IMG/VR virus record: IMGVR_UViG_3300044742_000102 | DNA length: 64,000 nucleotides | Origin: a virus | Direction: 5' to 3' (one strand) | Shown here: positions 18,501 to 33,637 of the stretch, one piece after another | Numbering within the stretch: position 1 is the stretch's first letter | Layout of the letters: every line of letters begins with the position of its first letter | The notes under the pieces: generated by a model | What the model was told of the DNA's origin: nothing | Database searches by the model: none | The model's input: the letters and a program-made list of their open reading frames with translations, nothing else | Program-made: the position numbers and the translations under genes

Positions 18501-18703
18501 TAGTTTGTTTCCTCTCCTGTGTCCGTAAGGGTACTATAGTCGTAGGTAAGGTTATCCCAATCAACTTCTTCTTGGTCATTAGCATAATCCCATATGTTGC
18601 CCTCTCTAGCATAGGCTAGTGCATCTTGTTCATCATCTCCTACAAGATACACTGTCTCGCGCATATGAACATCAAGCTCACGTACGATACTATAGATTTT
18701 CAT
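18500..18703 (-). CDS. hypothetical acidic early protein
   Basis: 67-aa ORF, coupled to its neighbours. Confidence 0.5.
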   Translation of the reverse strand: MKIYSIVRELDVHMRETVYLVGDDEQDALAYAREGNIWDYANDQEEVDWDNLTYDYSTLTDTGEETN

Positions 18704-18948
18704 TATTCTACCTCTACATCATACACACCACCGTACACACCGTACGCAGCAGCAGACTCTCGTGCATCGAGGTAACTTGTGTCATCAACACGATCCCATT
18801 CGTTACGCAGTAGATTGTTGATGAAGGTGATGTAGTAGTTCACCGCTCCTTCCAGATCATCAAACGGAAACACTTTCATGTAGTCTCTAACATTGTCAAC
18901 ATCAGTAATCACTACCCACACAACAGTTTTATCCACAGGTTTCTCCAA
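18703..18948 (-). CDS. hypothetical early protein
   Basis: 81-aa ORF. Confidence 0.5.
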   Translation of the reverse strand: MEKPVDKTVVWVVITDVDNVRDYMKVFPFDDLEGAVNYYITFINNLLRNEWDRVDDTSYLDARESAAAYGVYGGVYDVEVE

Positions 18949-19030
18949 ACACTACCATCAATCCTAACACAATGAACATGGGAATCCACAGCACCGCTAG
19001 AAGAATAACTGGCTCCCAATCAATTCTCAT
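18929..19030 (-). CDS. 33-aa TM micro-protein
   Basis: MRIDWEPVILLAVLWIPMFIVLGLMVVFGETCG. ATGA overlap with the upstream gene. Confidence 0.35.
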   Translation of the reverse strand: MRIDWEPVILLAVLWIPMFIVLGLMVVFGETCG

Positions 19031-19236
19031 TCAGGTTCCTCCGTGATATCTACGAGTTTTGTTGTCACATCAACGAGAGTAGGCAGACCATCCTCATCAG
19101 TTACATCAAAGTAATACTGATAGTCAGTCCAGTAGCGTAGCCAGCTCATGTAGTCTTGCACAAGGTCTTCTACATGTGCCCCACTCTCTGCTTCGACAAT
19201 CACACCAAGAGTTACTCGTGCGGTAAACTCAGCCAT
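19027..19236 (-). CDS. hypothetical acidic early protein
   Basis: 69-aa ORF. Confidence 0.5.
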   Translation of the reverse strand: MAEFTARVTLGVIVEAESGAHVEDLVQDYMSWLRYWTDYQYYFDVTDEDGLPTLVDVTTKLVDITEEPE

Positions 19237-19304
19237 ACAACACCTTCACAATCAAGTATGCCGTAATACACACAGACACAGTAATGAACGCGAGGGCTTC
19301 CCAC

Positions 19305-19436
19305 TTATCCAATGTACTCACCTTTCGTTTCTACTATAATTCCACTAGGAAATCGATTCAAGACACTCAACGCAATAGCATAGTCTAGCGTTGTGATGAT
19401 GTGCATACTACCAGAGAACACATGATAGATTGTCAT
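19305..19436 (-). CDS. 43-aa micro-protein
   Basis: MTIYHVFSGSMHIITTLDYAIALSVLNRFPSGIIVETKGEYIG. ATGA overlap with the upstream stop. Confidence 0.35.
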   Translation of the reverse strand: MTIYHVFSGSMHIITTLDYAIALSVLNRFPSGIIVETKGEYIG

Positions 19437-19939
19437 TCGTCCATCAATCCTGTTCCGTACTTCTCAACATAACACGGCATACAATACTCACCAGTCCAAA
19501 ACACGCTGTATTCATAGTCCTCTTTTCTGGGTGGCAGGGTCTCCCCACAACGCGCACACACAGTCTGGTCTTTCGGATCATCACTCCATCCTACACGAGT
19601 CCCTGATTCAACCTCATATTCAAACCCACTGGTATCTCCAATCGCTGTTTCCCACGCACGCACATCATTCCAAGCCTCTTCCGCGCTAGCTCTCCAATCT
19701 AATTCATGAGTCACACGAGTACCAACCGACCGACCGGCCTGTGCAATGAATGAGAATGCTACACGATAGACTGTGTATGTGAATGGATAATATGCTCCAC
19801 TCTCACATCTTACACACATGAAGTCGATACCGCAACCACCCACATACACACCATGCACACAATAATCATATGGTTCAGCACGATCAAACTGTCCGTAGTC
19901 TACACCATAGCCATTTACATCATCATCACGGTCGATCAC
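19433..19939 (-). CDS. Cys-rich (zinc-binding-like) protein
   Basis: 168 aa with several Cys pairs (CVHGVYVGGCGIDFMCVRC...CARCG...CMPC). Confidence 0.55.
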   Translation of the reverse strand: MIDRDDDVNGYGVDYGQFDRAEPYDYCVHGVYVGGCGIDFMCVRCESGAYYPFTYTVYRVAFSFIAQAGRSVGTRVTHELDWRASAEEAWNDVRAWETAIGDTSGFEYEVESGTRVGWSDDPKDQTVCARCGETLPPRKEDYEYSVFWTGEYCMPCYVEKYGTGLMDE

Positions 19940-20175
19940 TATGGATTCCTCTCATCCTGTACAGCAACAATCTCACGATCTTCATCTGCATAGTAGATAT
20001 CCCACGGATTCTCTACATCAAGATCATGTCCTTCCATTACAAGCAGACCACAATACACTTCCCACGCTTGCCAGAAGTTCTTGTAGAGTACGACTGACTT
20101 TCTATCGTATTCTTCATCATCTCCGCGATCATCTACAATAACGTGCATACCATCAAGAATCGTTGGCATTTTCAT
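19939..20175 (-). CDS. hypothetical early protein
   Basis: 78-aa ORF. Confidence 0.5.
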   Translation of the reverse strand: MKMPTILDGMHVIVDDRGDDEEYDRKSVVLYKNFWQAWEVYCGLLVMEGHDLDVENPWDIYYADEDREIVAVQDERNP

Positions 20176-20306
20176 GGCAATTCTCCTGCTTCTACTGTAA
20201 GGATAACTGACTTAGGGTATTCACGCATAGTATCATATGCATGTCTAATGTCAGTAGTCATCACACGACACACACACCATACGAGAATACGAAGTAAATA
20301 GTCATA

Positions 20307-20690
20307 CTAATACTTCCACGGTTGAATAGGTGTGTCACACTGACTACATATCATGTGGCAACATCCAGTATATCTCACATAGTTGGCAGGTTCAGCCGCA
20401 CCAAACTCGAATATCCATCCAAACAAGCATGAGATACACACCATCTCTCCGTTATAGTCTACGTATCCATTGATTGGTGCTTCATTATCAGGGTATAATG
20501 AGCTAGACTCATCGTTGTACGTTTGGTAGTAGTCACCGCATGTACGCATCACATCTGATTCGTTTCTATCAGCAAGTGAGAGAATACGATGTGCTTCTAG
20601 TTCATGTCCAGTGAGCCAGTAGAATACATCATGCATGTTATTCACCATCCTCAAACTCTGTAATGTCTGCTTCCCACTCGTATACATCAC
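20307..20690 (-). CDS. Cys-rich hypothetical protein
   Basis: 127 aa with VCISC...GCCHMICSQC. Confidence 0.5.
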   Translation of the reverse strand: MMYTSGKQTLQSLRMVNNMHDVFYWLTGHELEAHRILSLADRNESDVMRTCGDYYQTYNDESSSLYPDNEAPINGYVDYNGEMVCISCLFGWIFEFGAAEPANYVRYTGCCHMICSQCDTPIQPWKY

Positions 20691-20877
20691 TAATAATTGC
20701 TTGTGGTTCTCTTACATCACGATACCCCTGCCGCACTATCACACGCTCAGATTCACGATTTGCAATTTCCCATAGTTCTCCAATGCTATCAACATCACCC
20801 GGATGTGGAATCTCGATAGTAACCATAATTTCGATCACCAAAGTCTTACGAGTTTCCATGCTACTTCCTCCTGACAA
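20638..20877 (-). CDS. hypothetical early protein
   Basis: 79-aa ORF. Confidence 0.45.
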   Translation of the reverse strand: MSGGSSMETRKTLVIEIMVTIEIPHPGDVDSIGELWEIANRESERVIVRQGYRDVREPQAIISDVYEWEADITEFEDGE

Positions 20878-21058
20878 TCACAACCACATCATCGACATGC
20901 TTATCCCTATTCTTCTGAGATAGTGGGCAGAATCCGTACCTCTCACCTATACTAAATATGATGTATCCTTTCCATCTTTCTAGATCATGCAGGAACTCTG
21001 CACTTTCGATGCATCTACTCAGCATACTGATTCTCTCGCTCCGATGTGTTGTCACCAA
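20861..21058 (-). CDS. hypothetical early protein
   Basis: 65-aa ORF. The start is uncertain because it overlaps the upstream gene. Confidence 0.4.
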   Translation of the reverse strand: MVTTHRSERISMLSRCIESAEFLHDLERWKGYIIFSIGERYGFCPLSQKNRDKHVDDVVVIVRRK

Positions 21059-21221
21059 AGTCGTCCTCGCTTTCTTCTACATTCCACTCCATCTGAGCAA
21101 CGATGTTAGGTGGAATATCCCATGCGTAGAATATCTCTGCAATGATCCTTTCTGCTTCTTCGTAGTTATCTGCTACTACACCATCGAGGAATCCCGCAAA
21201 GCCTGCTGCGTAGTATTTCAT
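21015..21221 (-). CDS. hypothetical acidic early protein
   Basis: 68-aa ORF. Confidence 0.5.
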   Translation of the reverse strand: MKYYAAGFAGFLDGVVADNYEEAERIIAEIFYAWDIPPNIVAQMEWNVEESEDDFGDNTSERENQYAE

Positions 21222-21265
21222 CTAATCCTCATCGTACGGATGAACGATGACTTCAATCAATCGCA

Positions 21266-21484
21266 TTAGATCATCTCCAAGATCAACAATGGACTCTTGA
21301 CACCATGATGACAGATACCATCAGGTTCGACAGTACAACCACATGGTAGATCGTACATATCTTCGAACATCAACTCTGCAATCTGGTAGTCGTATGTCTC
21401 AGTCCATGTCTCTTTCTTATCTGAGACAGTAATAACTACCACATCATCACCGCGAATGGCATACGATGCCTTCAACTTAACCAT
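21266..21484 (-). CDS. hypothetical early protein
   Basis: ATG at 21484 (MVKLKASYAIRGDD...). The track start at 21490 is a TTG. Confidence 0.5.
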   Translation of the reverse strand: MVKLKASYAIRGDDVVVITVSDKKETWTETYDYQIAELMFEDMYDLPCGCTVEPDGICHHGVKSPLLILEMI

Positions 21485-21650
21485 TGTCAATCTCCTTCTT
21501 ACATGTTACACAGTAGTAGTCACGATATGGCACACCATCAGCATCAGCGTAGAGTGTATCACGTTTCGAGTTGAGTTGGTTATTGCAGCGTACACATGCT
21601 GGTCGAAACTCTGCGTTGTGTGGATGAACAATGACTTCGATTAGTCTCAC
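21477..21650 (-). CDS. 57-aa zinc-ribbon protein
   Basis: GTG start in a GTGA overlap. Translates as (M)RLIEVIVHPHNAEFRPACVRCNN...YYCVTCKKEIDNG. Confidence 0.45.
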   Translation of the reverse strand: MRLIEVIVHPHNAEFRPACVRCNNQLNSKRDTLYADADGVPYRDYYCVTCKKEIDNG

Positions 21651-22078
21651 GCAAACACCAACCCTGTCTCTAGTGCTACCTGCAACTCATTATCCCAAAT
21701 TGCACGCTGGTTGTTCACACGTGCCAACTCCATCACCGTTGATAGATACATTTCATCCTTACTAATGATGCTTGACACATCAATGTACACATCATCCTCA
21801 TCAATCCACGTACCAATTGCTTTCAGTGTCCCCCTATTCGTTCCTCGACTATTCCATTGTTCAATGTATGCTTCATTCCCATTGAGGCACCATTGGGTAA
21901 ATCTAGTCATATCGAAGCTATCAATAGGAATCTGAATACCACGATCATCATCCAGTGACAAACAATACACACGTGCTGCTGGATGCAATGCATACATACG
22001 TGGTAGTAGGAACGTACCACCACCAAACTGCAACGTATGCATCACGACACTATCGTAGTTGTTGTATGGTCTACTCAC
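21647..22078 (-). CDS. hypothetical early protein
   Basis: 143-aa ORF. Confidence 0.6.
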   Translation of the reverse strand: MSRPYNNYDSVVMHTLQFGGGTFLLPRMYALHPAARVYCLSLDDDRGIQIPIDSFDMTRFTQWCLNGNEAYIEQWNSRGTNRGTLKAIGTWIDEDDVYIDVSSIISKDEMYLSTVMELARVNNQRAIWDNELQVALETGLVFA

Positions 22079-22699
22079 TTAGTATGCTCTCCCTCTCTTT
22101 AGAATCCACACATATGCTTGCAGTTCAGCATATGCCCAACCGAGACTATCTGCCACAATACGTACTGCATCACACATAGCAGCATAGTGCTTCGTGCTGA
22201 TCTTCTTCTTCTTATCCTTTCGTGTGAACAATCCAAACACCTGTGCCATGATGCTATCTATGACAATCATCAAGCTCCTATTCCTGTGTCGAATCACATC
22301 AGCGAATGATGTAATCTTCTGACCATTCAGTACGTACAACACATCAGACCATGTGAACGTATCAGGCAACATCATGATATGTTCACATTTGTCTATGCAT
22401 ATATCGAAACATCGAGGTGCTTCATCATCTAATCCCATGTACCAACGAATGAACTGTTCAGCGTTGTATCTGTTTCTTTTCCAACGCTGTCTGATCGACA
22501 TGGCACTTGTAATGCCAATACACTTGTCAATATGCACACCATATGTCTCGCTGAGATACACAGCGAAATCATATGCATACGGATACCAATGTCGCGCATG
22601 TCCCTTCGCATACGCAGCAAGAACAGTATCCTCTTCCTCTTTACGTTGAATGAAATCGTACAAGCGATATGCATATTCCCATGTCAATGCATCAATCAT
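22079..22699 (-). CDS. hypothetical early protein
   Basis: 206-aa ORF. Confidence 0.6.
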   Translation of the reverse strand: MIDALTWEYAYRLYDFIQRKEEEDTVLAAYAKGHARHWYPYAYDFAVYLSETYGVHIDKCIGITSAMSIRQRWKRNRYNAEQFIRWYMGLDDEAPRCFDICIDKCEHIMMLPDTFTWSDVLYVLNGQKITSFADVIRHRNRSLMIVIDSIMAQVFGLFTRKDKKKKISTKHYAAMCDAVRIVADSLGWAYAELQAYVWILKRGRAY

Positions 22700-22920
22700 T
22701 AGTCCTCCAACTCTCGCTTACGAATCCGATAGTACACCTGATGATAGTTACCACCATGCCACACATTGACATAGTATGACCACGACAATGGTTCCCACTG
22801 TGGGTTGTTCTCATGCCAATCTAGTTCTGCTGCCTGCATCGCACCAACGAGTGTTTCGTACACATCCTTGAAATGGTCATGTGTGTACAACTCACAGCCC
22901 AACAACACATACACGTACAT
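22699..22920 (-). CDS. hypothetical early protein
   Basis: 73-aa ORF. Confidence 0.5.
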   Translation of the reverse strand: MYVYVLLGCELYTHDHFKDVYETLVGAMQAAELDWHENNPQWEPLSWSYYVNVWHGGNYHQVYYRIRKRELED

Positions 22921-23061
22921 CTACAGCAATCCCTTCACACACAACACCAACGAGAACACCAGCCCAGCATTTCCCCACAGCGGTAAGCCATAGAGTATGT
23001 TCGTACTGATAAACCCCACAATCACTATGATCGAGATAATCGTGTACAGTGTAAGACTCAC
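22921..23061 (-). CDS. 46-aa two-TM micro-protein
   Basis: GTG start in a GTGA overlap. Translates as (M)SLTLYTIISIIVIVGFISTNILYGLPLWGNAGLVFSLVLCVKGLL. Confidence 0.4.
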   Translation of the reverse strand: MSLTLYTIISIIVIVGFISTNILYGLPLWGNAGLVFSLVLCVKGLL

Positions 23062-23321
23062 GAATATACTCTACGTGGATGTACTACTCCCACAATCTCA
23101 TCATCACGAAACACACCAACAGTATCTACATTCCCCTCATATCTACGCTGCCTAAACTTACCCTTTCCTTCGTAGCCATTACGCACACCATCAGCACTAG
23201 CCCAATCACGAGTATAGGCTATTGCATCATCACGTGTCTTCAACAGTTTCGTATGGTAGTTATCCTTTCTACCACATCCAAACAGCGTAGCCTGCCATTT
23301 CATATGTACTCGTTGTGCCAT
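23058..23321 (-). CDS. hypothetical early protein
   Basis: 87-aa basic ORF. Confidence 0.5.
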   Translation of the reverse strand: MAQRVHMKWQATLFGCGRKDNYHTKLLKTRDDAIAYTRDWASADGVRNGYEGKGKFRQRRYEGNVDTVGVFRDDEIVGVVHPRRVYS

Positions 23322-23654
23322 CTAATCCTCCACGTATTCTGTCTGCTTCAATGATAGGTGAAATTCCTCATCATAGAAGAAGTATGATGACCACAATTCG
23401 TTGAAATCTTCCTCGTTCGTACATTCATCTAGTGCTTCTGAAAAGAGCAGAACACTTTCATCATCTTGCAAGTATGCTACTCCTGTCACACTCCCATCTG
23501 CTTCAATGTAATCAATGGCATAGTTCGCACCATTGCCATATGATGTGAGCCTGTACTTGTTGTAGTATGTCCATGTGTCGATCTTGTGGAATCCCATCTG
23601 CCTACCAACTTTCATCATGATTGTAGACAATACCAACAACCAACTCATTAGCAT
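23322..23654 (-). CDS. hypothetical early protein
   Basis: 110-aa ORF. Confidence 0.5.
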   Translation of the reverse strand: MLMSWLLVLSTIMMKVGRQMGFHKIDTWTYYNKYRLTSYGNGANYAIDYIEADGSVTGVAYLQDDESVLLFSEALDECTNEEDFNELWSSYFFYDEEFHLSLKQTEYVED

Positions 23655-23832
23655 GGTCTATCACTTCGATCATGCTACGGTGATAACACGTGTACAGTGT
23701 CTTACCGAAGTTACCCTGATTGTACAGGATAAACTGTAGACACTGATTCACAGACACAAAGCACCTGTTCATCACGAATACAGATTCATCATCATGCCAC
23801 AAACGAACATCATACATGTTGGACTCCTTCAT
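23602..23832 (-). CDS. hypothetical early protein
   Basis: 76-aa ORF. Confidence 0.45.
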   Translation of the reverse strand: MKESNMYDVRLWHDDESVFVMNRCFVSVNQCLQFILYNQGNFGKTLYTCYHRSMIEVIDHANELVVGIVYNHDESW

Positions 23833-24086
23833 CGTGCCATTCCTCCCAATACATCAAACAGAACCAACACACGTTGCATGATAGCATCATACTGCTCCAC
23901 GCTATCAGTATTATCGAATACTGAATCACGTGTACGTATGAATGTAATCGCATCACTCCCTTCAATGGTAAACAAGTAGTGACCATTCTCGCTCACATCG
24001 AATGCGAGTTTGCCTTTCACCCATGTTGGATTCCATGTGTACAAGGTGATTTCATCATTGTTATTCATTCTACTCACCATCTTCAA
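23829..24086 (-). CDS. hypothetical early protein
   Basis: 85-aa ORF. Confidence 0.5.
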   Translation of the reverse strand: MKMVSRMNNNDEITLYTWNPTWVKGKLAFDVSENGHYLFTIEGSDAITFIRTRDSVFDNTDSVEQYDAIMQRVLVLFDVLGGMAR

Positions 24087-24309
24087 TCAATTCATCATCG
24101 GACACATCAGCGGAGTTGTCATCGACATTGACATTCAACACACGCGCAACAACACCCTTACCATCGAATACCAAGAAACCACCTGAAATCATATCCCAAT
24201 GTGGATTCTTGATCTTCAACTTGCCGACAATTCCGCGTGCTTCACCGTATGACTCCGCAACAGTCTTACCATACGCGGCACCATTCTTGACAAACTCAAC
24301 TGTAAACAC
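24070..24309 (-). CDS. hypothetical early protein
   Basis: 79-aa ORF. Confidence 0.5.
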   Translation of the reverse strand: MFTVEFVKNGAAYGKTVAESYGEARGIVGKLKIKNPHWDMISGGFLVFDGKGVVARVLNVNVDDNSADVSDDELIEDGE

Positions 24310-24388
24310 GTTGTGTACTCCCTACACATGAGACAATGAGCATCACATGATACTCTTTAAATAAATAATACATAGGGTGCATTGAATG

Positions 24389-24592
24389 TTATTCGTAGAG
24401 CGGCTTGGCCTCATAGTATGTCGCATATCGTGTTGCAAGTGTAATGCGACCATCAGAATCAGTTGTCACCTTAGCAGCACCGTACTTGCGCTTTTCGTGT
24501 CGCATATACTGTAGCACCGCGCTTTTCGATGCATTATGCAATACACAAGACTTGCCATAGTCGGCACGCAATTCGTACAAGTTGTACTTCAC
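24389..24592 (-). CDS. hypothetical basic early protein
   Basis: GTG at 24592, just after the upstream TAA. The longer tracked ORF would overlap the upstream gene by 65 nt. Confidence 0.45.
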   Translation of the reverse strand: MKYNLYELRADYGKSCVLHNASKSAVLQYMRHEKRKYGAAKVTTDSDGRITLATRYATYYEAKPLYE

Positions 24593-24593
24593 G

Positions 24594-24989
24594 TTACTTC
24601 CCCATTTCCACGATGTAATCGACCGTATGTCCGTATTGCATGGTTTCGTTGCGTGCAATCAATTCGTGCTGGAGTGCTGTTGCATTGTCAATGCCGTACA
24701 CCTTAGCGTACAGGGTACGCGTAACAATCGGCTTGCGTGCGAACGTGTTAGTTACCACACGAAACACTCTACAATCAGCATCTTTGTGACTATTGTACGA
24801 TCCGGTTGAGACAGGCTCACGAACAATCTCACGTACAGGAATTAGTGCGACCGCTATGTTGTTACTGTCAACAGTACACAACATAGGCTCAAATATGGTT
24901 TCTTCGGCTGCCACCATGCCATGTTTGTCGCGGTATTTCTTGACAACCGGCACATCCTTCGGAAATGTATCGTACACAACTAATTCCAT
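24594..24989 (-). CDS. hypothetical early protein (first gene of the left - strand block)
   Basis: 131-aa ORF, preceded by about 200 nt of untranslated leader. Confidence 0.6.
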   Translation of the reverse strand: MELVVYDTFPKDVPVVKKYRDKHGMVAAEETIFEPMLCTVDSNNIAVALIPVREIVREPVSTGSYNSHKDADCRVFRVVTNTFARKPIVTRTLYAKVYGIDNATALQHELIARNETMQYGHTVDYIVEMGK

Positions 24990-25193
24990 GCTACCCTACA
25001 ATCTTCCGAACTACGAAACCACCAACTACCCTAGCAGGCTCACGTGTGATGACAACTCCGCGTACAATCGTTCGTTGTGTGACACTATCGGGATTCAATG
25101 ACTCACGAATCAGTACACTGTTGCTGATGCCCTTAGTCCGTTTCGTGTTTCTCACGACATATCCTATCTGTCATTCCTAGTGTGATACTTTCA

Positions 25194-25258
25194 CACTGTA
25201 CAGTACACAACACGGGGGTTTCTAGAAACCCCCTCACAACATTCTGTACTGTACAGTG
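25194..25258. repeat. nested inverted repeat
   Basis: Outer 13-bp arms CACTGTACAGTAC (25194-25206) and GTACTGTACAGTG (25246-25258) enclose the perfect 20-bp palindrome GGGGGTTTCTAGAAACCCCC (25214-25233). Confidence 0.85.
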
Positions 25259-25263
25259 CGGTC

Positions 25264-25290
25264 ATACGCGACAATCGCACTGTCGCGTAT
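25264..25290. repeat. 10-bp-stem hairpin
   Basis: ATACGCGACA-atcgcac-TGTCGCGTAT. Confidence 0.8.
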
Positions 25291-26280
25291 CACTCACACA
25301 ATCGCACATCCTAGCAGTATGCTAACTCCGCTAGTCTGTACTATCCTCGCACTGTCACTACCCTGTACGCGATGCAAGCGTTACAACCTATTGTGTAGGG
25401 TCTGAATCCCTACCATATCAGCGGTTCCTAGTAGGTTGAGAGTCTATCCCTGTAGGCTATGTACGCGATCCGTACTAGTGTCGCTATCTGCAACACAACT
25501 AGTACAGTTTTGCGATCCGCACAACTCTACCCCTACAGTCTAGTGCTATCCCTACCCTAGTCCTACCGATACGCGGCACGCGGCACGCATACGTAGTGCT
25601 AACAGCGGGATTGATTATCCGAATCCTCGCACCGCGTACGGCATTCCTGCCTGAACATTCACGCGGGACTGATTCAGTTGTGAGTTGAGGGATACTCAAC
25701 ATACCCGGAGTATACGCGCTATAAAGGAAGCAGACTAGTGTACGTACACTCTCAGAACACCTATATTTGCAGAATGGTACAGTCTATTCCTATTCTAGCA
25801 ATACAGTGGTACACATGCTAGCGTATGCGGTCGATACGCAATCCTTGCTAGACAAGATTCATAGCCTGCCTTGTGCGTAGCCAAATGAGTCGTGGGTCAT
25901 CTGTGCCAGCGGCATGAGCCTTGCATACAAGCCAATAGTTGTCCCGCAACCCCTGCCATATGCTCCCTTTCGTGCGTGGTAAGCATGGTGCTTGCGTGGT
26001 ATGCAACTGGTTGGTTGCGTATGAGGCACCACCCCTACCACTAGCGCAACCATTGCCCCACCAGACACACCCATGCCTACCCTTGTCCCTTGCTGCGCGA
26101 GTGTGCAATGAACACACACCATACGCAATGACACACACTATGAGGCAAGTCTTGTGCCATGCCAACCCACACGCACCATGCACAAGTCTTGTCCACACAC
26201 AACCATTGCACCGAAGCACTTAACCCACCCCCCAGACAATTATTGCCCCGGCTCCGGGCACGAGCGCGTAGGCCCATACT

Positions 26281-26310
26281 AATCTATGCAGACTTTTCAT
26301 ATTATTTCAA
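26281..26310 (-). promoter_or_regulatory. weak candidate sigma70-type promoter reading leftward into the island
   Basis: On the - strand: TTGAAA, 18-nt spacer, TAGATT. Only a partial match to consensus. Confidence 0.25.
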
Positions 26311-26391
26311 GCTGGTATAAAAATGTATATGGACATTTGCATTATGCAGACATTTCACATTATCCCCGCGCACATCAATATAATAAATGGA

Positions 26392-26437
26392 CAAAGAAAA
26401 ACCGACCTACTCAACCCGTGTGGGAAGAATAAGTCGG
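26392..26437 (-). terminator. intrinsic terminator ending the - strand replication operon
   Basis: On the - strand: CCGACTTA...TAGGTCGG (8 bp including one G-U pair) followed by TTTTTCTTTG. It begins about 20 nt after the stop of gene 26459..26671. Confidence 0.6.
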
Positions 26438-26458
26438 TGTATTACTAGCTAAATGTGT

Positions 26459-26671
26459 TTAGGTGGTAACAACATGTCCGTTTCGAAGATGTACGCTAAG
26501 AGTGCCCTCTGTACCCCACACAGTGTGGACAGGTATGATGTTCTCGCAAGTAGAACAATAGCCTACGCTACGACCATTTTCGTGTCGTACATCTATCTTT
26601 CTATTACCCGAACCGGGACAGTGGGCTGGTAGTCCCAGGAATCGTGCGTAGGTACTGTTAGGAGTTTTCAT
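26459..26671 (-). CDS. small Cys-containing (zinc-binding-like) protein
   Basis: ATG at 26671, 10 nt after the upstream TAA. Translates as MKTPNSTYARFLGLPAHCPGSG...GYCSTCENI. Confidence 0.5.
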   Translation of the reverse strand: MKTPNSTYARFLGLPAHCPGSGNRKIDVRHENGRSVGYCSTCENIIPVHTVWGTEGTLSVHLRNGHVVTT

Positions 26672-26681
26672 GAAACCTTCG

Positions 26682-27074
26682 TTAGAATCTAAGGGTGCCT
26701 CGAAGGGTTCCAGCTTGTATGGCACGCTGTTGGGTATCTGCTGTTCCACGTGATTCTCCATCCCATATGGTATACACTTGTCCACCAATACGAACCATAA
26801 AATCGTTCCGAAGAAACCCCGCATGTTTACCCAGATACCAAGGAGCCTTCATTTCATATGCCTCAAATCCGCGCTGTACTGCTGTAATGTGGCTGATTCT
26901 GTCGATACCCGCTGCACCACCTGTCACGATGATGTGTTCTGCTGGATCAAGCTGTGCGATCAGATACTCTACCTGATCGAATGCAGCTACATACCGCTGT
27001 TCGTAGTTTTCTCGAAAACTTCTTTCTGAGTGCTTATCCAGCCTGCTACCCGCGATAACTGTGATTTCCTTCAT
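26682..27074 (-). CDS. SLOG-superfamily DUF2493-like protein
   Basis: VIAGSR...IIVTGGAAGIDRISH...GKHAGFLRNDFMV...WDGESRGT matches the GGAxGxD / AGxxRN / GxxGT pattern of DUF2493. ATG at 27074 follows a GGTGG RBS. Confidence 0.6.
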   Translation of the reverse strand: MKEITVIAGSRLDKHSERSFRENYEQRYVAAFDQVEYLIAQLDPAEHIIVTGGAAGIDRISHITAVQRGFEAYEMKAPWYLGKHAGFLRNDFMVRIGGQVYTIWDGESRGTADTQQRAIQAGTLRGTLRF

Positions 27075-27075
27075 G

Positions 27076-27288
27076 TTACCACCTTTGCATACCCGGATCA
27101 TATCGTGGTTGTGATTGTCTCCAATTGTACTCGTAGGTATCTCGTTCTTGTCTAGCACGCTGTAGTTGATTTATCAGGTTCGCTAGCTCTGCCCGTGCAA
27201 CAGTTAACTCATTTTGTAGGTGGGTATTTTGTGTCACAAGTTCGACAATACGGTCGAGTGCTGCCTGCATATCAGTCATGGTCATCAA
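27076..27288 (-). CDS. coiled-coil protein
   Basis: 70 aa with a heptad-like region LQNELTVARAELANLINQLQRARQERD. Confidence 0.5.
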   Translation of the reverse strand: MMTMTDMQAALDRIVELVTQNTHLQNELTVARAELANLINQLQRARQERDTYEYNWRQSQPRYDPGMQRW

Positions 27289-27835
27289 ACATTTCTAGAG
27301 CTTTACGGGGTAGTTCTGATATCCCACATGATCGACTGCCTGTAAGTAGCGTGCCTCTTCGATATTGGTAAGCCTGCTCCCAGCTATGACTGTTAGGGTT
27401 TTCATCTTCCTCAGCCTCTTTGTCAGCATAGAGATTATCCATATGTTCATTAACCAGATCGGGAATACGCTCGATGGCATACCATAGCTTGTGCCATGTA
27501 AGCTCTGCCTCATCTGCACGAGCATGGCTGTTCTGTGCTGCTTGTACAGTTACATCGTACCGTTGCTGGAGTAGTTTGTTTGCTTCATGAGCCTCAACGA
27601 GTTCTCGTAACATCTGTCTATCAGATTTTTCTAGTTCTGCAATACGTGCGTGTAGCTTCATATTCTCCGATGCTGTACTATACAACGCAGCATTATTACC
27701 CCGCTCGTAGCACTCATTTGCAAACTCTCCTAGAACATTGTACTGCTCTGTCCAGTTCGTACCGCTATTGTGTAGATCACTCAGCACATCGATAATGAAC
27801 TCAGTTGGTATGTAGTTTTCTCGAAGTATGCTCAT
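27272..27835 (-). CDS. hypothetical protein
   Basis: 187-aa ORF. Its 3' end shares DNA with an alternative-frame SLOG fragment. Confidence 0.5.
   Translation of the reverse strand: MSILRENYIPTEFIIDVLSDLHNSGTNWTEQYNVLGEFANECYERGNNAALYSTASENMKLHARIAELEKSDRQMLRELVEAHEANKLLQQRYDVTVQAAQNSHARADEAELTWHKLWYAIERIPDLVNEHMDNLYADKEAEEDENPNSHSWEQAYQYRRGTLLTGSRSCGISELPRKALEMFDDHD
27295..27405 (-). pseudogene. truncated paralogue of the SLOG/DUF2493 N-terminus, in an alternative frame
   Basis: MKTLTVIAGSRLTNIEEARYLQAVDHVGY... compares with MKEITVIAGSRL...YEQRYVAAFDQVEY of gene 26682..27074. About 35 nt of DNA similarity is also visible. Confidence 0.45.
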
Positions 27836-28053
27836 TCTGACATCCTCTTTATGTATTCATAACGGAATCCGTTCTCTTTACCCACTTCGATGCCTTTGTC
27901 ATACCCAGCACCCCATGTGAGTCGTGCCAGTCTGAGGTGTTCCGTAGAGAGTGTATCCAACCAATCACGTATCTCTTCCTGCACAGCTTCCTTTTCCTCA
28001 TCTGTTTCAGGCCAGTCACCCAAGTTATCTATGTATGTCATATATCTAACCAC
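27832..28053 (-). CDS. hypothetical protein
   Basis: 73-aa ORF. Confidence 0.5.
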   Translation of the reverse strand: MVRYMTYIDNLGDWPETDEEKEAVQEEIRDWLDTLSTEHLRLARLTWGAGYDKGIEVGKENGFRYEYIKRMSE

Positions 28054-28247
28054 ACCACTTCTGTTTGTCCGTTATGCCCGTGTACTGCTTCAATATAGCT
28101 GATCGATGGATACAGGTTATAGCTGGTGTACTCAGTCAGCCATGTCATCGCGCACATGCCATTTGTGAAGCGTACTCCCTCAGCGACAACCCCCGTTCCT
28201 GAAATACCTGATGTATCCTTGTGTCTGAGCAGTATGAACCTCTTCAT
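28038..28247 (-). CDS. hypothetical protein
   Basis: Internal ATG giving MKRFILLRHKDTSGISGTGVVAEGVRF.... The longer track ORF overlaps the upstream gene. Confidence 0.45.
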   Translation of the reverse strand: MKRFILLRHKDTSGISGTGVVAEGVRFTNGMCAMTWLTEYTSYNLYPSISYIEAVHGHNGQTEVVWLDI

Positions 28248-28773
28248 CTGTGACTTGTTCGAGGATTTCGACAAGTCTATCGATTGGTCTGAATCGATAG
28301 GCTGGTATGCCGTTACGTAACTCTGTTCTCCCCGATTTGCTTCCTGATACGGGTATCTCAATGACATATGCGTTCATAGCCTCCTTTGGCAAGTACCCCA
28401 CAAGCTCCAATACACTATACGGCTCTACCCAGAGTCCAACCACACCATAGTCATCATGGAAGGTCTCTGGCTGTTGTTTGGGTGGATAGAGGAAGTCTGG
28501 TCGGAGGTCTCCATGTCGTGTCTTGACACTAAGGGTGATATCCCCCCTCCACAAGTCTCTACGGTGACCATCCCCCCTACCCATGTGCAACCACGGGTCA
28601 AACATGCAGCCGAGAGCCTTTGCCATTGCAAACTCCCCAGCTATGCCCATCTCGACTACCCGCAGGTTGCTATAGCGGGATACCTGCTTGGTGTTCCACT
28701 TCTTTGCCATAACCCGTATCTCAGCCTGTTCTCGTATGAATGCCTGTTCTTCCTTAGTCAGATAGGAGAGCAT
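28180..28773 (-). CDS. putative PD-(D/E)XK-like nuclease
   Basis: GIAGEFAMAKALG...GDGHRRDL...ITLSVKTR resembles a restriction-endonuclease-like core. The ATG at 28773 lies 5 nt after the palindrome at 28778-28793. Confidence 0.4.
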   Translation of the reverse strand: MLSYLTKEEQAFIREQAEIRVMAKKWNTKQVSRYSNLRVVEMGIAGEFAMAKALGCMFDPWLHMGRGDGHRRDLWRGDITLSVKTRHGDLRPDFLYPPKQQPETFHDDYGVVGLWVEPYSVLELVGYLPKEAMNAYVIEIPVSGSKSGRTELRNGIPAYRFRPIDRLVEILEQVTDEEVHTAQTQGYIRYFRNGGCR

Positions 28774-28777
28774 TGGG

Positions 28778-28793
28778 AAGTTTCTAGAAACTT
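28778..28793. repeat. GTTTC-TA-GAAAC family palindrome
   Basis: AAGTTTCTAGAAACTT, a perfect 16-mer. Confidence 0.8.
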
Positions 28794-29182
28794 GCATTGT
28801 TCTGTGCGACTCCCTCATCTACGCACTCTTGGAGCATGGTTGTTAGCTGTACATTCAGTGCAGATATGGCCTGTATCACCTGAAAGAGTGTTGCGATAGC
28901 CTGTCGTTCGAGATACAGATCATATGCATGTGGCACAGATAGGTCCATTTCTCCTTTGGGACAGTCACAGGTTGGGAATACTGCTTCTGGTAGCTGGTGA
29001 TGCGTGGCTGGACCAGCGGGATGTGTTAACGTATACTCACCAGCACCATGATAGAAGATCGGATAGTTGCATACGGGACACGAACCCGACTTATAGAACC
29101 CACTTGGAGGGTCAGGATTGAGTACCTGACCCTGCAAGTTAACGAGTTTACCCATCCACAGGCTCATTTCCTTCTGTGCCAT
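28784..29182 (-). CDS. hypothetical protein
   Basis: 132-aa ORF. Confidence 0.5.
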   Translation of the reverse strand: MAQKEMSLWMGKLVNLQGQVLNPDPPSGFYKSGSCPVCNYPIFYHGAGEYTLTHPAGPATHHQLPEAVFPTCDCPKGEMDLSVPHAYDLYLERQAIATLFQVIQAISALNVQLTTMLQECVDEGVAQNNASF

Positions 29183-29591
29183 CTAAACATGCGGTTGAAG
29201 AGGCATCTACGAACGCATGTAACTCTTCTCCAAGGGGTTGTTCTGTCCCTGCAAGTGGGTTTGTGACCCCAAACACGAGATTTCCATCCTGATCGTAGAC
29301 ACCGGGTGGTCTAGCACCCCCAAATGACCCAATTTTGGCATCAAGCTGGTCAATACGCTCCTGAATGTCGTAGAGTTCCCCATCAGAGTAGTTAAATAGG
29401 TCTTCTTGGACCTCTTCATGCTCATCGAACTCATCTTCGAGTGCTTCAAGCGCGTTCCAGAGTGGTCTGCTCATCAAATATGAGGCTGCAATCGCTATAA
29501 TGACCGCTAACAGGGCTGCTACTGCAATTTCCACTATTCTACTCCTTCGTTTTGGTATTGTCCAGCATACAATGAGCTTGCTAGCGCACAT
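29148..29591 (-). CDS. membrane-anchored hypothetical protein
   Basis: TM segment IVEIAVAALLAVIIAIAASYLM. Confidence 0.5.
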   Translation of the reverse strand: MCASKLIVCWTIPKRRSRIVEIAVAALLAVIIAIAASYLMSRPLWNALEALEDEFDEHEEVQEDLFNYSDGELYDIQERIDQLDAKIGSFGGARPPGVYDQDGNLVFGVTNPLAGTEQPLGEELHAFVDASSTACLDGTEGNEPVDG

Positions 29592-30274
29592 GGAACCATA
29601 ACCATGTGGCCGATACGAGTACCTACCTCGATATTGAATCCATGTGTGTTATGTACTATCAGACTAGACTTACTTACACCTTGATAGCCTGCATCCCATA
29701 CCGCTGTTCCCATATCAACCCCACAACGCAGCAGGGAGCTTCTGGGCCACATCAAGCCCATATAGTTGGCTGGAATCTTAACGAGTTCCTCAAATTCGAC
29801 CAGATACATGCCGGGATCGAGATGATACATGTTACTGGTCGGTACGATGCGTGTATACCTCGGCAAACTCTTATCATCCTGCCAGAGTGTCCCATATCCG
29901 TACATTTTATAGATTTGACTCAGTGTGAAGTCATATCCAACCGGTGTTTCGTGTGTAGAGCGGTACGGATCAACAATATCGATCCAGCCTAGCTCTGCTG
30001 GTATAAACCGCTCATTATCGTAGAGCAGGTTAACTCCACCGGGATGTAGGTTGAGTTGTCGGCCAAAATTCCACTCATTCCGCGATGGTGTTTGGTGTTC
30101 TTGCTGGGAAGCGTGTATCTTCTCTGTACGGTCTCGTTCTTCCGTGTCCATCAACTGCTGGCTCATTTCTAGTCTGTCTGTCACCAGAGATAGGCTCCAT
30201 CGAGGTCTGTAGCCTCTCCACACCTTCCTCAGTTGGAGCTTCGTTATGCGGTTCCACATTTTCGACCATAGCAC
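29534..30274 (-). CDS. dCTP deaminase / dUTPase-superfamily protein
   Basis: PRSSLLRCGVDMGTAVWDAGYQGVSKSSLIVHN and C-terminal YAGQYQNE match Dcd/dUTPase beta-barrel motifs. The start is uncertain, with in-frame ATGs at 30166 and 30151. Confidence 0.65.
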   Translation of the reverse strand: MLWSKMWNRITKLQLRKVWRGYRPRWSLSLVTDRLEMSQQLMDTEERDRTEKIHASQQEHQTPSRNEWNFGRQLNLHPGGVNLLYDNERFIPAELGWIDIVDPYRSTHETPVGYDFTLSQIYKMYGYGTLWQDDKSLPRYTRIVPTSNMYHLDPGMYLVEFEELVKIPANYMGLMWPRSSLLRCGVDMGTAVWDAGYQGVSKSSLIVHNTHGFNIEVGTRIGHMVMVPCALASSLYAGQYQNEGVE

Positions 30275-30686
30275 GGTAGGTTTCCTCTGTTATCACCAAC
30301 TCCCTATCACGATCATTGAATACGGCCATGTAGGTCGTAACCGGGTGAGCAGCGAGTCCAGCCCCTTCCGATTCTTCGATTATGGCCGGATCGAGTACCC
30401 CATCCTCATAGAAGGCTCGTACTGGTGCGGAATGGGTGAATGCGATGATCTGGGTGTCCATTGTGTGCCCAGCGATGGATGCAAGCGATGTGGGGAAGGG
30501 TCCGAGGGGTATACCCACGATCTGTTCGATTTCGAGCAGTTGTTCGTGGGTCAGCGGTAGTAGTTCTTCAACTGGCTCTATTATACCAGATTCGGGTTCG
30601 TTTGTCAAGCCCAATTCTCCATCGGGAGCATTAGGCAAGGGGATCAGTCGAATGACCGGATTCCTATCCATTTGGGATGCTCCCAT
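30075..30686 (-). CDS. hypothetical protein
   Basis: 203-aa ORF. It contains a perfect internal promoter and overlaps the Dcd-like ORF. Confidence 0.4.
   Translation of the reverse strand: MGASQMDRNPVIRLIPLPNAPDGELGLTNEPESGIIEPVEELLPLTHEQLLEIEQIVGIPLGPFPTSLASIAGHTMDTQIIAFTHSAPVRAFYEDGVLDPAIIEESEGAGLAAHPVTTYMAVFNDRDRELVITEETYRAMVENVEPHNEAPTEEGVERLQTSMEPISGDRQTRNEPAVDGHGRTRPYREDTRFPARTPNTIAE
30580..30608 (-). promoter_or_regulatory. perfect sigma70-consensus promoter (TTGACA, 17-nt spacer, TATAAT)
   Basis: - strand: gCTTGACAAACgaacccgaatctggTATAATaga. It shares the extended CTTGACAAAC -35 element with the promoters at 46697 and 47368. Confidence 0.75.
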
Positions 30687-30897
30687 CCCCGATAATGAGT
30701 TCTACCTCAGCCAGCGTGGCTACCTTGACAATCATGCCGTTTCCTACGTTGACAGCGTAGCCATCGCGCTCTCGAACGACTCTGGAGCGTACTGCTGGTG
30801 CTTTGAGCCATTCTACGCTAGGTCGCTCCGTTTCGTTGCGTAGATCGTATCCACTGGTTATTTCGTATTCTGAGTTTTCTAGAAAACTTATTTCCAT
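30664..30897 (-). CDS. hypothetical protein
   Basis: GGAGG RBS. 77 aa. Codons 4-9 carry the palindrome at 30873-30888. Confidence 0.55.
   Translation of the reverse strand: MEISFLENSEYEITSGYDLRNETERPSVEWLKAPAVRSRVVRERDGYAVNVGNGMIVKVATLAEVELIIGDGSIPNG
30873..30888. repeat. GTTTTC-TA-GAAAAC family palindrome
   Basis: AGTTTTCTAGAAAACT, a perfect 16-mer. Confidence 0.8.
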
Positions 30898-30906
30898 TCT
30901 AGCCTC

Positions 30907-30990
30907 CTAGGCCGGTAATGCGCTAATAAACGCGGCAGCGATGAAAAACAGGATTATTCCAACAAGTATCGTTCGAATGTGTTCATTCAT
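30907..30990 (-). CDS. 27-aa TM micro-protein
   Basis: MNEHIRTILVGIILFFIAAAFISALPA. ATGA overlap with the RNR stop codon. Confidence 0.35.
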   Translation of the reverse strand: MNEHIRTILVGIILFFIAAAFISALPA

Positions 30991-33044
30991 CTTGAAAAAT
31001 CAATTTCGCACGAATTGCCATCACAATAGCGGTTATCAATACCATCACTACCCCCGTAATCACTCCAGTCAACCACAGGAGTAATTTCCTTACACCTTCG
31101 TTCATATTCTTCTGCCGTAATCCCTTCATATGGTGCCTGCTCATACATCTTGTGTTCATCGTTATTTACGAGAAATGATAGTGCTTTGACTACGGGAAGC
31201 GTTTGGCTGACAACAGCTTCAAGTTGTCCAATCTCTCGTAGTCCAACAGTACCAGTAAAGGATACGGCATTGTCGGCCCACACTCGTTGCAAGAAAGCTG
31301 CAATGCTAGCCTGCTCCCAGATACTAACTTGATCGACAGAACGTGTTCTTCCCCTTCCGGCCGATTGCATAGGGAACTGAAAGGAATAGCTGCCAGTTGG
31401 ATCGGTGGCAAGGGGTTCATAGGGCACTCCTGCTTCTATTAAGCGTTCCACGGCAGGGTCGGTTTGGGCAAATGTAATTCTGCGAATGAAGGTCTTCTTG
31501 ACCGGGTGATGGACACCGGGTGATACCCACGGTAGGAGACTGACCGTTCCAGATGGTTTGACCGTTGTGAGTCTGATGCTGTTCGGTACACCGGCTTCAC
31601 TCGCAAGCAGAGTATTACTATTTCTGACAGTATCGTACCCATCATCGAGCCAACGATGAATATATGAGAAGGGGGTGGAGTCGATCCAGTCTGCAATACC
31701 CGATACCGATACCCCGATCCTCCGATTCTGGGCAACGACCGCATTGGTGTCGTAATCGTGTGATGGCAACAGTGCGACCGTTGATGCAAAAAAGGTAGCA
31801 GCTTCCAATATGTCGTGCCACTCCGCTTTGCTTGTAATGCGCGTTGGGAATGTCTCAACAAGATTACATAGCTCCTTACTATAGAGTGGAATCTCCCCAC
31901 AGGGATTCATTCCTGTCGCAAAGTCTTCTCTGAGGAAGGGGTTGCCATTCCCAACTTTATCACGATATCTTCCCCTCGTCCGTATGTTTCGAGCATTAAT
32001 GAATCCGGGTTCACCACGACCTTCCACCCCGATAATATGTGATACAAGGTCAGGGATTCGTTCGAAGTCTGCATCATTATCCATCCAAACGGAATTATTG
32101 GACATGTAACTATGTCCTGCACGATGCGCGTAATCTCCGGGTATCCAGAGTCCATCCTTATCCTCGTGTCCTATATCCTTCATAGAAACGAATATATCAT
32201 CGCTTGGTGAGCCAATAGCTATCTCTGCGCTTCTGCGTACGTTACCTGCAATGACACAAACACCTATCAGGTTCATTATATCGGCTGTAAGCTCCGTACC
32301 GACCATCTGTCGGCCTGAATTGACCGCTTGGTCCAGTAGCTCTCTCACCCTGTTGTGCAGGGCTATCATTGGCTCTGGACCGCTTGCAATGCCTCCAAAC
32401 CCACGAATCAGGCTACCCTTCGGTCGTACCTCGCTATAATCGAAGAATACGGGCTGGAGACCAAACTCGTAGCTGGCAACAAGCTGTCGGGTTGCCTCTA
32501 CCCAACCTTCCCTCGAATCAGGGACCACATAGACAGTCGGCTCCCCGCGAGGTCTTGCAAGAAGGGCTGTGACCATAGGGACAGAGAATCCGACTCCAAC
32601 GCCCAACATCAAGTGATCCATTAACCAAGCAGAGGCTTCTGAAAGACTGCCCGACTCCACAAATCCGCAATTGTTCAGTGCAGCATTGCCCCTCTTGTAG
32701 ACATAATCTGTGCCCATTGCATAGAGCGAACGACCGGGTGGTAGCCATTTCATCGCAAACATCTGTCGTGCGTAGTGTTGTGCTCGTAACTGCCATTCTC
32801 GATCATCCCATCTTCTACCGATGAGCGTATACCATGACTTACGAATATTCATGATTCCTTCGATGTTACGCTGGATTACGTGGTGCCAATGCTCCTGCAC
32901 ACCAAATGGTGACTGTTCTGGACCTCTACTATAGGTGCGGTAGAAGGTTGCCTGACTGAGCAGCCCTCCACCCCACGGAACCGGTGTTTCCTCTAATTCT
33001 TGTATAAACCCCTTATCTAGATGGAAGGTCTGCTCTACCCACAT
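30987..33044 (-). CDS. nrdJ: class II (adenosylcobalamin-dependent) ribonucleotide reductase
   Basis: NPCGEIPL active-site motif, TTVKPSGTVS, and a C-terminal CDGNSC cysteine pair. 685 aa. Confidence 0.8.
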   Translation of the reverse strand: MWVEQTFHLDKGFIQELEETPVPWGGGLLSQATFYRTYSRGPEQSPFGVQEHWHHVIQRNIEGIMNIRKSWYTLIGRRWDDREWQLRAQHYARQMFAMKWLPPGRSLYAMGTDYVYKRGNAALNNCGFVESGSLSEASAWLMDHLMLGVGVGFSVPMVTALLARPRGEPTVYVVPDSREGWVEATRQLVASYEFGLQPVFFDYSEVRPKGSLIRGFGGIASGPEPMIALHNRVRELLDQAVNSGRQMVGTELTADIMNLIGVCVIAGNVRRSAEIAIGSPSDDIFVSMKDIGHEDKDGLWIPGDYAHRAGHSYMSNNSVWMDNDADFERIPDLVSHIIGVEGRGEPGFINARNIRTRGRYRDKVGNGNPFLREDFATGMNPCGEIPLYSKELCNLVETFPTRITSKAEWHDILEAATFFASTVALLPSHDYDTNAVVAQNRRIGVSVSGIADWIDSTPFSYIHRWLDDGYDTVRNSNTLLASEAGVPNSIRLTTVKPSGTVSLLPWVSPGVHHPVKKTFIRRITFAQTDPAVERLIEAGVPYEPLATDPTGSYSFQFPMQSAGRGRTRSVDQVSIWEQASIAAFLQRVWADNAVSFTGTVGLREIGQLEAVVSQTLPVVKALSFLVNNDEHKMYEQAPYEGITAEEYERRCKEITPVVDWSDYGGSDGIDNRYCDGNSCEIDFSR

Positions 33045-33629: not shown

Positions 33630-33637
33630 AATATCCT

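Follow-up and report, generated by a model that had tools for sequence, protein, structure and literature searches.

Why would a tightly packed phage genome keep more than a kilobase of DNA that encodes no protein? The question is raised by a viral sequence of 64,000 nucleotides (nt) (IMG/VR virus record IMGVR_UViG_3300044742_000102; the whole of this stretch is referred to here as the window), in which positions 25156-26458 (~1.3 kb) contain no credible gene. An earlier note on this DNA had described a gene-free, repeat-rich island at 25181-26458 and had offered three explanations for it: a replication origin, a long structured non-coding RNA (ncRNA) or 5' leader for the genes that follow, or the physical genome end or packaging site. 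The island is indeed free of genes; its left border has to be moved, as the gene-free stretch reaches ~25156. Of these explanations two survive, the origin and the promoter or 5' leader, each probably for its own part of the island; the long ncRNA is unsupported and the genome end disfavoured. The island is best read as a composite cis-acting DNA control region, being neither a gene nor one large RNA. To our knowledge, compact lytic phage genomes rarely retain more than 1 kb of non-coding DNA; since the gap has nevertheless been kept across eight divergent lineages, an essential cis-acting function is suggested.

This conservation became visible in seven related lineages that were retrieved with the ribonucleotide reductase as a handle (reductases 60-70% identical, contigs of 17-72 kb). 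Six of the seven possess a complete gene-free gap at the equivalent syntenic spot (upstream and downstream are used here in the sense of the flanking gene blocks, both on the - strand in the window), and the contig of the seventh, L021, ends within its gap. The lengths of the complete gaps are:

L014: 1523 nt
L015: 1442 nt
L016: 1355 nt
L018: 1850 nt
L019: 2337 nt
L022: 1716 nt

The gaps are flanked upstream by a DprA-like (SLOG) gene and downstream by a block of small genes that includes DUF7178 (missing from the L016 block), with small variable genes at both edges. The gene-free gap is therefore a conserved feature of this phage group, unlike most of its sequence. L014 and L015 are the closest pair: their flanking genes share 60-90% DNA identity, whereas the gap bodies align at the level of shuffled sequence; all that can be aligned between gaps is a core of ~90 nt and an end patch of ~60 nt. 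Lack of conservation was one of several findings that, taken together, would have made the earlier note's claim fail: position and anatomy are conserved, most of the sequence is not. The occurrence of the gap at the equivalent place in seven other lineages, together with its conserved cis-elements, strongly supports the functional non-coding island that the note implied. Scans of IMG/VR with protein patterns yielded two partial relatives only, neither reaching the island. Two left-flank proteins also served as handles: a 131-amino-acid (aa) protein, an ORFan that matched only itself among 5.8 billion proteins, and a 212-aa protein, which gave just two short contigs. Neither megablast nor blastn found a DNA match to the island among 50,697 deposited phage genomes.

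Protein-coding capacity was sought in several ways. Reading through TAG opened no frame, and recoding of TAG or of another stop codon in the island was accordingly ruled out. A tblastx comparison between the gaps of five lineages found no conserved open reading frame (ORF), a conserved one under purifying selection being what would have refuted the earlier note's claim, and stop-free runs in the island equal those of shuffled sequence. Only two island ORFs are called by some gene callers (71 and 111 aa, in two overlapping frames of the G+T-rich zone); neither has a Pfam match or a counterpart in the relatives. The note's observation that no plausible ORF is present is thus borne out by the read-through, tblastx, stop-free-run and Pfam checks alike. 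The Rfam scan that it proposed was run on the window and six relatives and retrieved no family (Rfam 15), either at the gathering threshold or in a permissive scan, the best sub-threshold matches (E of at least 0.47) being to animal microRNA and long ncRNA models. Ten near-identical assemblies of the locus differ at 0-8 sites, strain variation too scant to be informative.

The features on which the following argument depends are, from upstream to downstream, and with one pair of boxes elsewhere in the window:

26392-26437, - strand: intrinsic terminator ending the replication operon (15-bp interrupted stem, -24.1 kcal/mol, followed by the T-run TTTTTCTTTGT)
26283-26390, - strand: AT-rich segment with three boxes (18-mer matches at 26341-26358, 26324-26341 and 26283-26300)
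26228-26238, - strand: G-run motif TGTCTGGGGGG, at a fixed distance from the last box
25839-26245, no strand assigned: array of seven CAA-N3-TTG words in a CA/TG-rich zone
25300-25838, no strand assigned: fast-evolving body, rich in CTAG, GTAC, TAGG and TACGCG, with loose GATAG/ACTAG repeats and no stable fold
25179-25293, - strand: cluster of inverted repeats (20-bp palindrome flanked by 17-nt arms, hairpin with 13-nt arms, 7-bp hairpin)
25264-25290, within the cluster: hairpin ATACGCGACA-N7-TGTCGCGTAT
25214-25233, within the cluster: perfect 20-bp palindrome GGGGGTTTCTAGAAACCCCC
25194 and 25246, within the cluster: inverted-repeat arms, 13 bp in the earlier note and here extended to 17 nt (94% complementarity)
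24991-25155, - strand: first small ORF (54 aa, basic), with an AGGA ribosome-binding site; called in 4 of 10 assemblies
24594-24989, - strand: 131-aa gene, following the 54-aa ORF
10207-10324, intergenic between two + strand genes: tandem box pair AAATGTCTATTAGA x2 (on the - strand), 25-nt period

At the upstream end, the hairpin and T-run that the earlier note had placed on the - strand at 26392-26437 were confirmed (fold z-score -3.9), and terminator-like hairpins stand at the equivalent place in L015, L016 and L018 and, by eye, in L022. The AT-rich segment carries a rare box of 14 nt with the - strand consensus AAAATGTCTATAAT, in three copies in the window and one to three in the relatives, arranged in tandem in the window and L015. 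The note had counted three copies of AGAC(A/T)TTT in this zone; two are exact (26290 and 26348), while the third reads GGACATTT (26333). The core of the box, RAAATGTCYR, occurs five times in the window against 1.07 expected, a count that none of 100 shuffles reached, and in the relatives' loci (12-22 kb) high-scoring boxes are confined to the gap. In all eight genomes the AT-richest 80 nt within 4 kb on either side lie at or near the box: the box segment is itself that minimum in five, and falls in the lowest 1.2% of windows in the other three. The AT-richest stretch seen belongs to the L021 gap (19393-20017), where ~26 uninterrupted A residues separate two boxes (GC 0.12 over 80 nt), the end of the contig lying ~240 nt beyond.

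Downstream of the box, the motif (G/T)(G/T)T(A/C)(T/C)DGGGG starts 61-65 nt from the box start in seven genomes, and the sequence in between is unconserved; the distance of ~63 bp corresponds to six helical turns. Several genomes place a GC-rich hairpin of differing sequence between box and G-run (Stouffer z -3.1 for the sense and -1.2 for the antisense strand), and in L018, L021 and L022 ACCTCCT is found 12-20 nt past the box. Scans with a composite pattern (box, G-run and first palindromic site) produced one match in viral_contigs and 76 in metagenome_contigs, all of them judged to be chance, being devoid of protein homology and of arrays.

The palindromic words of the array, CAA-N3-TTG or in fuller form (G/A)CAA-N3-TTG(C/T), start at 25839, 25933, 26047, 26146, 26183, 26200 and 26237. 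Seven of the 17 copies in the window are thereby packed into 407 nt of the island, where 0.11 would be expected, and the word is not over-represented window-wide (17 versus 17.65 expected). Across the eight genomes its frequency is 2.72/kb in gaps versus 0.20/kb outside them, a 14-fold difference. This enrichment is restricted to a spacing of three: with the other spacings from N0 to N7, CAA and TTG pair up at 0.08-0.66/kb in gaps versus 0.16-0.41/kb outside. The N3 itself varies freely, as would be expected of the spacer between DNA half-sites. Lineages also have words and arrays of their own, such as CAAG-N3-CTTG and five copies of CGGAATCGGC in L022, eight copies of ACAATTCTTG in L019, and seven copies of TCGATC directly upstream of TTGACA-17-TATCTT in L016, a pattern of variation that co-evolving pairs of protein and site would produce.

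Further downstream, the body folds no better than the coding flanks (z-scores 0 to -2.4), and across lineages this middle spacer measures ~0.5-1.5 kb, each with its own short repeats. The catalogue of repeats, palindromes and counts given in the earlier note was almost entirely reproduced, with three minor corrections. The two copies of TGTACGCGAT, at 25364 and 25460, are the only ones in 64 kb; the direct repeats TGCGTGGTA and CAAGTCTTGT (two copies each) and the long-range complementary pair GCATGGTGC (25983) / GCACCATGC (26173) are present in its C+A-rich zone. Its 11 occurrences of CTAG in 25300-25860 are likewise real (the window rate of 2.94/kb predicts ~1.6; Poisson P ~1e-6), as are seven of CTAGT and three of ACTAGT (seven in the whole window). 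The excess has to be tempered, however. CTAG occurs at 1.6/kb in flanks and 5.5/kb in gaps, compared with a random expectation of 3.9/kb (window and relatives), and the CTAG-rich zone of the window (19.6/kb) is the sole one far above random; since coding DNA of these genomes is depleted of CTAG and of 6-bp palindromes, part of the excess is relaxed avoidance. General enrichment of palindromes in gaps was rejected on the same grounds: 6-bp palindromes number 6.4/kb in coding flanks, 10.3/kb in gaps and 15.6/kb in random sequence (window and relatives' loci), gaps being merely less depleted than the flanks. The ~2.4-fold depletion in coding DNA is consistent with pressure from restriction systems.

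The downstream end is structured. All components of the nested inverted repeats described by the earlier note (arms, 20-bp palindrome and N7 hairpin) were recovered, and the cluster has a fold z-score of about -7 to -9.3 on both strands in the window. An exceptional fold (z -5 to -6.4) recurs at the same gap end in L014, L015, L018, L019 and L022, so that a strongly folding cluster precedes the first gene in six of seven genomes; where the distance to the first start codon was examined, it is 40-100 nt. The cluster of the window contains a weak promoter-like site, TAGAAA-18-TACAGT. Between cluster and first small gene come a shared TA(G/C)AGTGT, a small hairpin and a ribosome-binding site. In the window that gene is the 54-aa ORF, whose stop codon lies 1 nt upstream of the ATG of the 131-aa gene. 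Near-consensus promoters directed at the small genes are found in the L016 and L019 gaps.

Do these elements act as DNA or as RNA? On the sense strand of the array zone, G and T prevail in the window and in L018 and L022 (GC skew +0.15 to +0.28), C and A in L015, L016 and L019 (GC skew -0.22 to -0.34). The island is enriched in TAG and depleted of TAA on both strands alike, and avoidance of ATG or Shine-Dalgarno (SD) sequences specific to the sense strand was looked for and not found. Strand-symmetric statistics, together with a compositional bias that flips between lineages, indicate a function at the DNA level; this symmetry, the flip, the free N3 and the lack of an Rfam family point to double-stranded DNA. 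One large structured RNA is unlikely: the gap bodies cannot be aligned and fold in an ordinary way, and the strand flip and the lack of ATG/SD avoidance are equally at odds with it. A short transcript or leader starting at the box is compatible with all of this. There is, finally, a slim chance that the island specifies one or more non-coding RNAs from the box, for example a protein sponge or regulatory RNA, with an anti-Shine-Dalgarno-like ACCUCCU in its 5' region in three relatives. The fixed spacing and order of box, hairpin and G-run, the position of ACCTCCT and the far-end hairpins followed by G/T-rich tails would suit such an RNA. The switching polarity, the unconserved body and the variable N3 would not, and mismatches in the inverted-repeat arms (six G.U versus three A.C) do not differ significantly.

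Tentatively, we favour an island made of an origin-like module joined to the promoter or leader of the small-gene block. Origin function, promoter activity and protein binding we infer from the anatomy just described. The upstream third (26390-25840) would be the origin-like module, comprising the most meltable local DNA, the boxes, the G-run and the palindromic array. A dimeric phage DNA-binding protein would load on the array, and the AT-rich box segment would open; transcription from the box would enter the G-run, which may stabilise an RNA-DNA hybrid that the phage PolA-type polymerase could extend. The middle would be a fast-evolving spacer with lineage-specific short repeats, and at the downstream end (25293-25179) the stacked hairpins and the weak promoter-like site would feed or process a transcript of ~25 small genes. 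The location of the island directly after an operon encoding DnaB, primase, PolA, ribonucleotide reductase and a dCTP deaminase/dUTPase-family (DCD) protein also counts for an origin.

The mechanism is drawn by analogy with the T7 primary origin, T4 oriF/oriG and ColE1, transcription-activated origins that span 100-500 bp. The island resembles them in having a promoter-like element in or beside the most AT-rich DNA and, a fixed distance further downstream, a stretch where the non-template strand is rich in G, in a phage that encodes a PolA-type polymerase, primase and helicase; it differs in its length of 1.3 kb and in the ambiguous orientation of its box. Iteron-type origins (lambda ori, P1/F/pSC101-type plasmids) are built of 17-22-bp direct repeats in helical phase. 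With these the island shares an array of repeated short words, putative protein sites, beside an AT-rich unwinding segment and the lineage specificity of its words. Its words, however, are irregularly spaced palindromes of 9-11 bp, and the array is not beside an identifiable initiator gene.

Several observations weigh against this interpretation. No initiator protein was found, the sole hint being a sub-threshold match to a KilAC-type DNA-binding domain in a 316-aa protein encoded two genes upstream of dnaB, 17 kb from the island. The palindromic words are short and irregularly spaced compared with the classical 17-22-bp iterons, and the island and its counterparts (1.3-2.3 kb) are several times the size of known phage origins. 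Cumulative GC skew, a check proposed by the earlier note, shows no inflection at the island, where skew is negative on either side, and reaches its minimum at ~45-46 kb; transcription dominates skew in phages, which makes this criterion a weak one. The box is ambiguous in orientation, as discussed below, a search for a sigma factor that might read it (Pfam, PHROGs and PDB sequences) found neither a sigma factor nor a regulator, and every functional step is read from sequence anatomy. The absence of an identified initiator, the short irregular sites, the unusual length and the missing skew inflection together limit our confidence in an origin. As for novelty, it is rather unlikely, though conceivable, that box, array and G-run (at a fixed 63 bp) represent an undescribed type of phage origin (a promoter-made G-rich RNA-DNA primer with a new dimeric initiator) or a T5-like DNA-entry checkpoint that lacks DnaA boxes in a group unrelated to T5.

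The chief rival is transcriptional, and we regard it as possible but doubtful: behind the terminator, the box would act as a promoter specific to the phage, recognised either by a host polymerase that has been modified or by a minimal sigma factor that escaped detection (compare phiEco32 gp36 and T4 gp55), the palindromic words would be operators, the body a leader, and the hairpin cluster a processing or stabilising site of the RNase III type, like R0.3 before T7 gene 0.3. Five perfect (12/12) TTGACA-17/18-TATAAT promoters occur in the window, where chance would provide ~0.02, which indicates that the host polymerase reads canonical promoters; none lies inside the island or anywhere from the 26.4-kb terminator to 17.9 kb, so that the first 7 kb of small genes need a start signal in the island. 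The succession of terminator and box repeated in the relatives, the perfect TATAAT within the L022 box, the sense-biased hairpin between box and G-run, the L016 repeats abutting a promoter and the placement of the hairpin cluster ahead of the first start codon all fit such a scheme. The box (AAATGTcTATA) is moreover similar to tAATGTAtA, the single-element promoter that gp36, the sigma factor of phiEco32, recognises, and phiEco32-type phages have the same genome layout, with late genes on one strand and middle and small early genes on the other (PMC8948821). The capsid protein matches the SU10_MCP family as well. However, searches with Pfam, PHROGs and PDB sequences revealed nothing like gp36 or gp79, and the capsid protein is 23-34% identical to that of any cultured phage, its best matches not being Kuravirus phages. 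As a sigma-70 element, -35 or -10 and in either orientation, the box was rejected, no convincing partner hexamer being found. All strong copies in the window point the same way in absolute terms. Within the island they thereby run in the sense of the flanking genes, but those at 10264-10300 and 6901, near late genes, have the wrong direction for a phiEco32-type reading, being antisense to the + strand genes that lie downstream of them: the tandem pair follows a + strand terminator hairpin and stands 26-50 nt before a + strand start codon, and a single box (6901-6910) stands 48 nt before a 752-aa gene, in both cases without G-run or array. The box could thus be a - strand promoter of the island, a late-type promoter that faces outward and reads into the last part of the replication operon, or an element for binding or unwinding that works in either orientation. 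It would also be unusual for a leader of 1-2 kb to show neither sequence constraint nor ATG/SD avoidance, and palindromic sites that start 35-50 nt past the presumed transcription start and span 400 nt have an atypical geometry for operators.

Two further explanations were weighed. The island may simply be a plasticity zone, that is, a module boundary of low function where small genes are gained and lost and decayed non-coding DNA persists between a terminator and a promoter. The random-level identity of the body in the closest pair, stop-free runs and stop counts that resemble random sequence, and the variable small genes at both gap edges would all follow; we nevertheless consider this improbable, as decay would have to leave 1.3-2.3 kb free of genes in all eight lineages at once in genomes otherwise tightly packed, conserve spacing-specific arrays and a fixed-distance core, and provide every lineage with internal repeat arrays of its own. 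Alternatively, the island may concern DNA entry or genome ends, as a T5-like injection-stop region bounding small take-over genes that enter first, or as the junction left where the terminal repeats of a linear, T7-type genome collapsed on being assembled into a circle. That it divides co-directional blocks of unlike GC and AT skew agrees with this idea, as does the podovirus-like structural module. Partial contigs of L012 and L021 end within the island and that of L001 just before it; yet these are two to three of ~20 contig ends, others (L002 and L020) fall in coding DNA, and the enrichment is weak and suggestive only. Three full-length contigs of ~74 kb span the island and are broken elsewhere, at sites unrelated to one another, a sign of a circular assembly graph. 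A distance of 30 kb separates the terminase gene from the island, and the ATPase domain of the enzyme is nearest to the enzymes of T4-like cyanophages and BcepB1A, phages with headful packaging. Fixed termini in the island, and with them the genome end or packaging site of the earlier note, are accordingly disfavoured, and the DNA-entry explanation as a whole has little to recommend it, given also that the island sequence is unconserved, unlike T5-type injection-stop signals (iss), and has no DnaA boxes.

The T5 iss is all the same the closest described object, the likeness being architectural only. Both regions are gene-free, 1.3-1.7 kb long and full of direct repeats, nested inverted repeats and palindromes, and both border a block of small genes of unknown function and keep their position across relatives. 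The T5 region, however, is (as proposed) defined by paired DnaA boxes inside inverted repeats, while the motif TTWTNCACA is absent from the island and from the gaps of six relatives (four copies in the whole window). Repeats of the T5 type are conserved in sequence and order among relatives, those of the island are not, and the T5 region is part of a long terminal repeat, ~8% away from a fixed end of the genome, with DNA transfer in two steps, whereas the island belongs to a phage with a headful-like terminase and contigs that break at arbitrary points. This phage is also unrelated to T5, its PolA and capsid protein being at most 36% identical to those of any cultured phage. Some proteins of the small-gene block were compared with Pfam and gave no informative match, no search having been aimed at A1, A2 or dmp.

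Where the two genome arms diverge (45860-46320), a further ~460 nt are non-coding. They coincide with the cumulative GC-skew minimum and hold G-runs (GGGGAGGGGGATCAGGGGGAGGGG) together with repeats of GAACGA and GTGAGTGATGT; an origin or the genome ends could alternatively lie there.

The phage to which the island belongs is uncultured and has a genome of ~74.3 kb, of which the window is a part; independent assemblies include contigs of 74,354 and 74,245 bp. It has no close relative among the 50,697 deposited phage genomes, its PolA being at most 36% identical to that of any cultured phage. The layout around the island is as follows:

46.8-54 kb (46810-53950), + strand: 33 tRNA genes, including two tRNA-Met and one tRNA-Ile(tat)
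after the tRNA array, + strand: genes for terminase, portal, lysin, a 2,113-aa protein, an SU10-type capsid protein and tail proteins
45.6 kb to 26.46 kb, - strand: replication and nucleotide-metabolism block, ending at the island
island to 13.47 kb, - strand: small-gene block (~12 kb, ~25 genes, mostly without homologues)
45567, 39911, 30608 and 17864, - strand, and 47368, + strand: perfect sigma-70 promoters

The replication block encodes an Erf-like protein, DnaB, PolA, primase, a PD-(D/E)XK nuclease, a class II ribonucleotide reductase, the DCD protein and the DprA-like protein, and a 70-aa zinc-ribbon protein is encoded at 26459-26671. The GC skew of this block is ~-0.1 and its AT skew -0.1 to -0.25 (26500-45000), compared with -0.25 to -0.31 and ~0 in the small-gene block (13000-25000); both blocks occupy the same strand, and the change in both skews falls at the island. 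The perfect sigma-70 promoters divide the - strand into transcription units. The tRNA genes, unusually numerous for a 74-kb phage, are driven by near-perfect sigma-70 promoters at 46697 and 47368. In the structural module, which is podovirus-like (SU10-type capsid protein with a match to the SU10_MCP family, lysin, 2,113-aa protein), the 2,113-aa ORF (L023 11221-17562, just past the right end of the window) is flanked by the genes for an SLT/NlpC-P60 lysin and the capsid protein; neither Pfam nor PHROGs gave a match to it, and its product could be an ejected internal protein or a virion enzyme. A 524-aa protein is encoded within the replication operon (33638-35212, - strand), an odd location for a cell-wall hydrolase-like gene: its homologues in the relatives have weak Amidase_2/Glucosaminidase matches. 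The - strand ORFs 28038-28367 and 28180-28818 overlap by 188 nt in different frames, and each is ~52% identical to its L001 counterpart over the full length, so that either they are true overlapping genes or one frame shadows the other. Two genes of the endonuclease VII family are present, one first in the - strand arm (45579-45860; Pfam E = 9e-24) and the other beside the capsid gene (L023 19318-19749).

The island is best seen as a large non-coding phage control region with a defined, testable motif architecture, an observation that extends to a whole phage group with no cultured member and almost no annotated regulators. Its set of motifs (box, G-run with its fixed spacing, spacing-specific palindromic array, terminal hairpin cluster) offers handles for locating the origin and the promoter classes of this group, for identifying the cognate DNA-binding protein, and for annotating this region in related metagenomic genomes. 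It also reveals that T5-like 'repeat jungles' beside blocks of small genes exist outside the T5 group, and do so without DnaA boxes.

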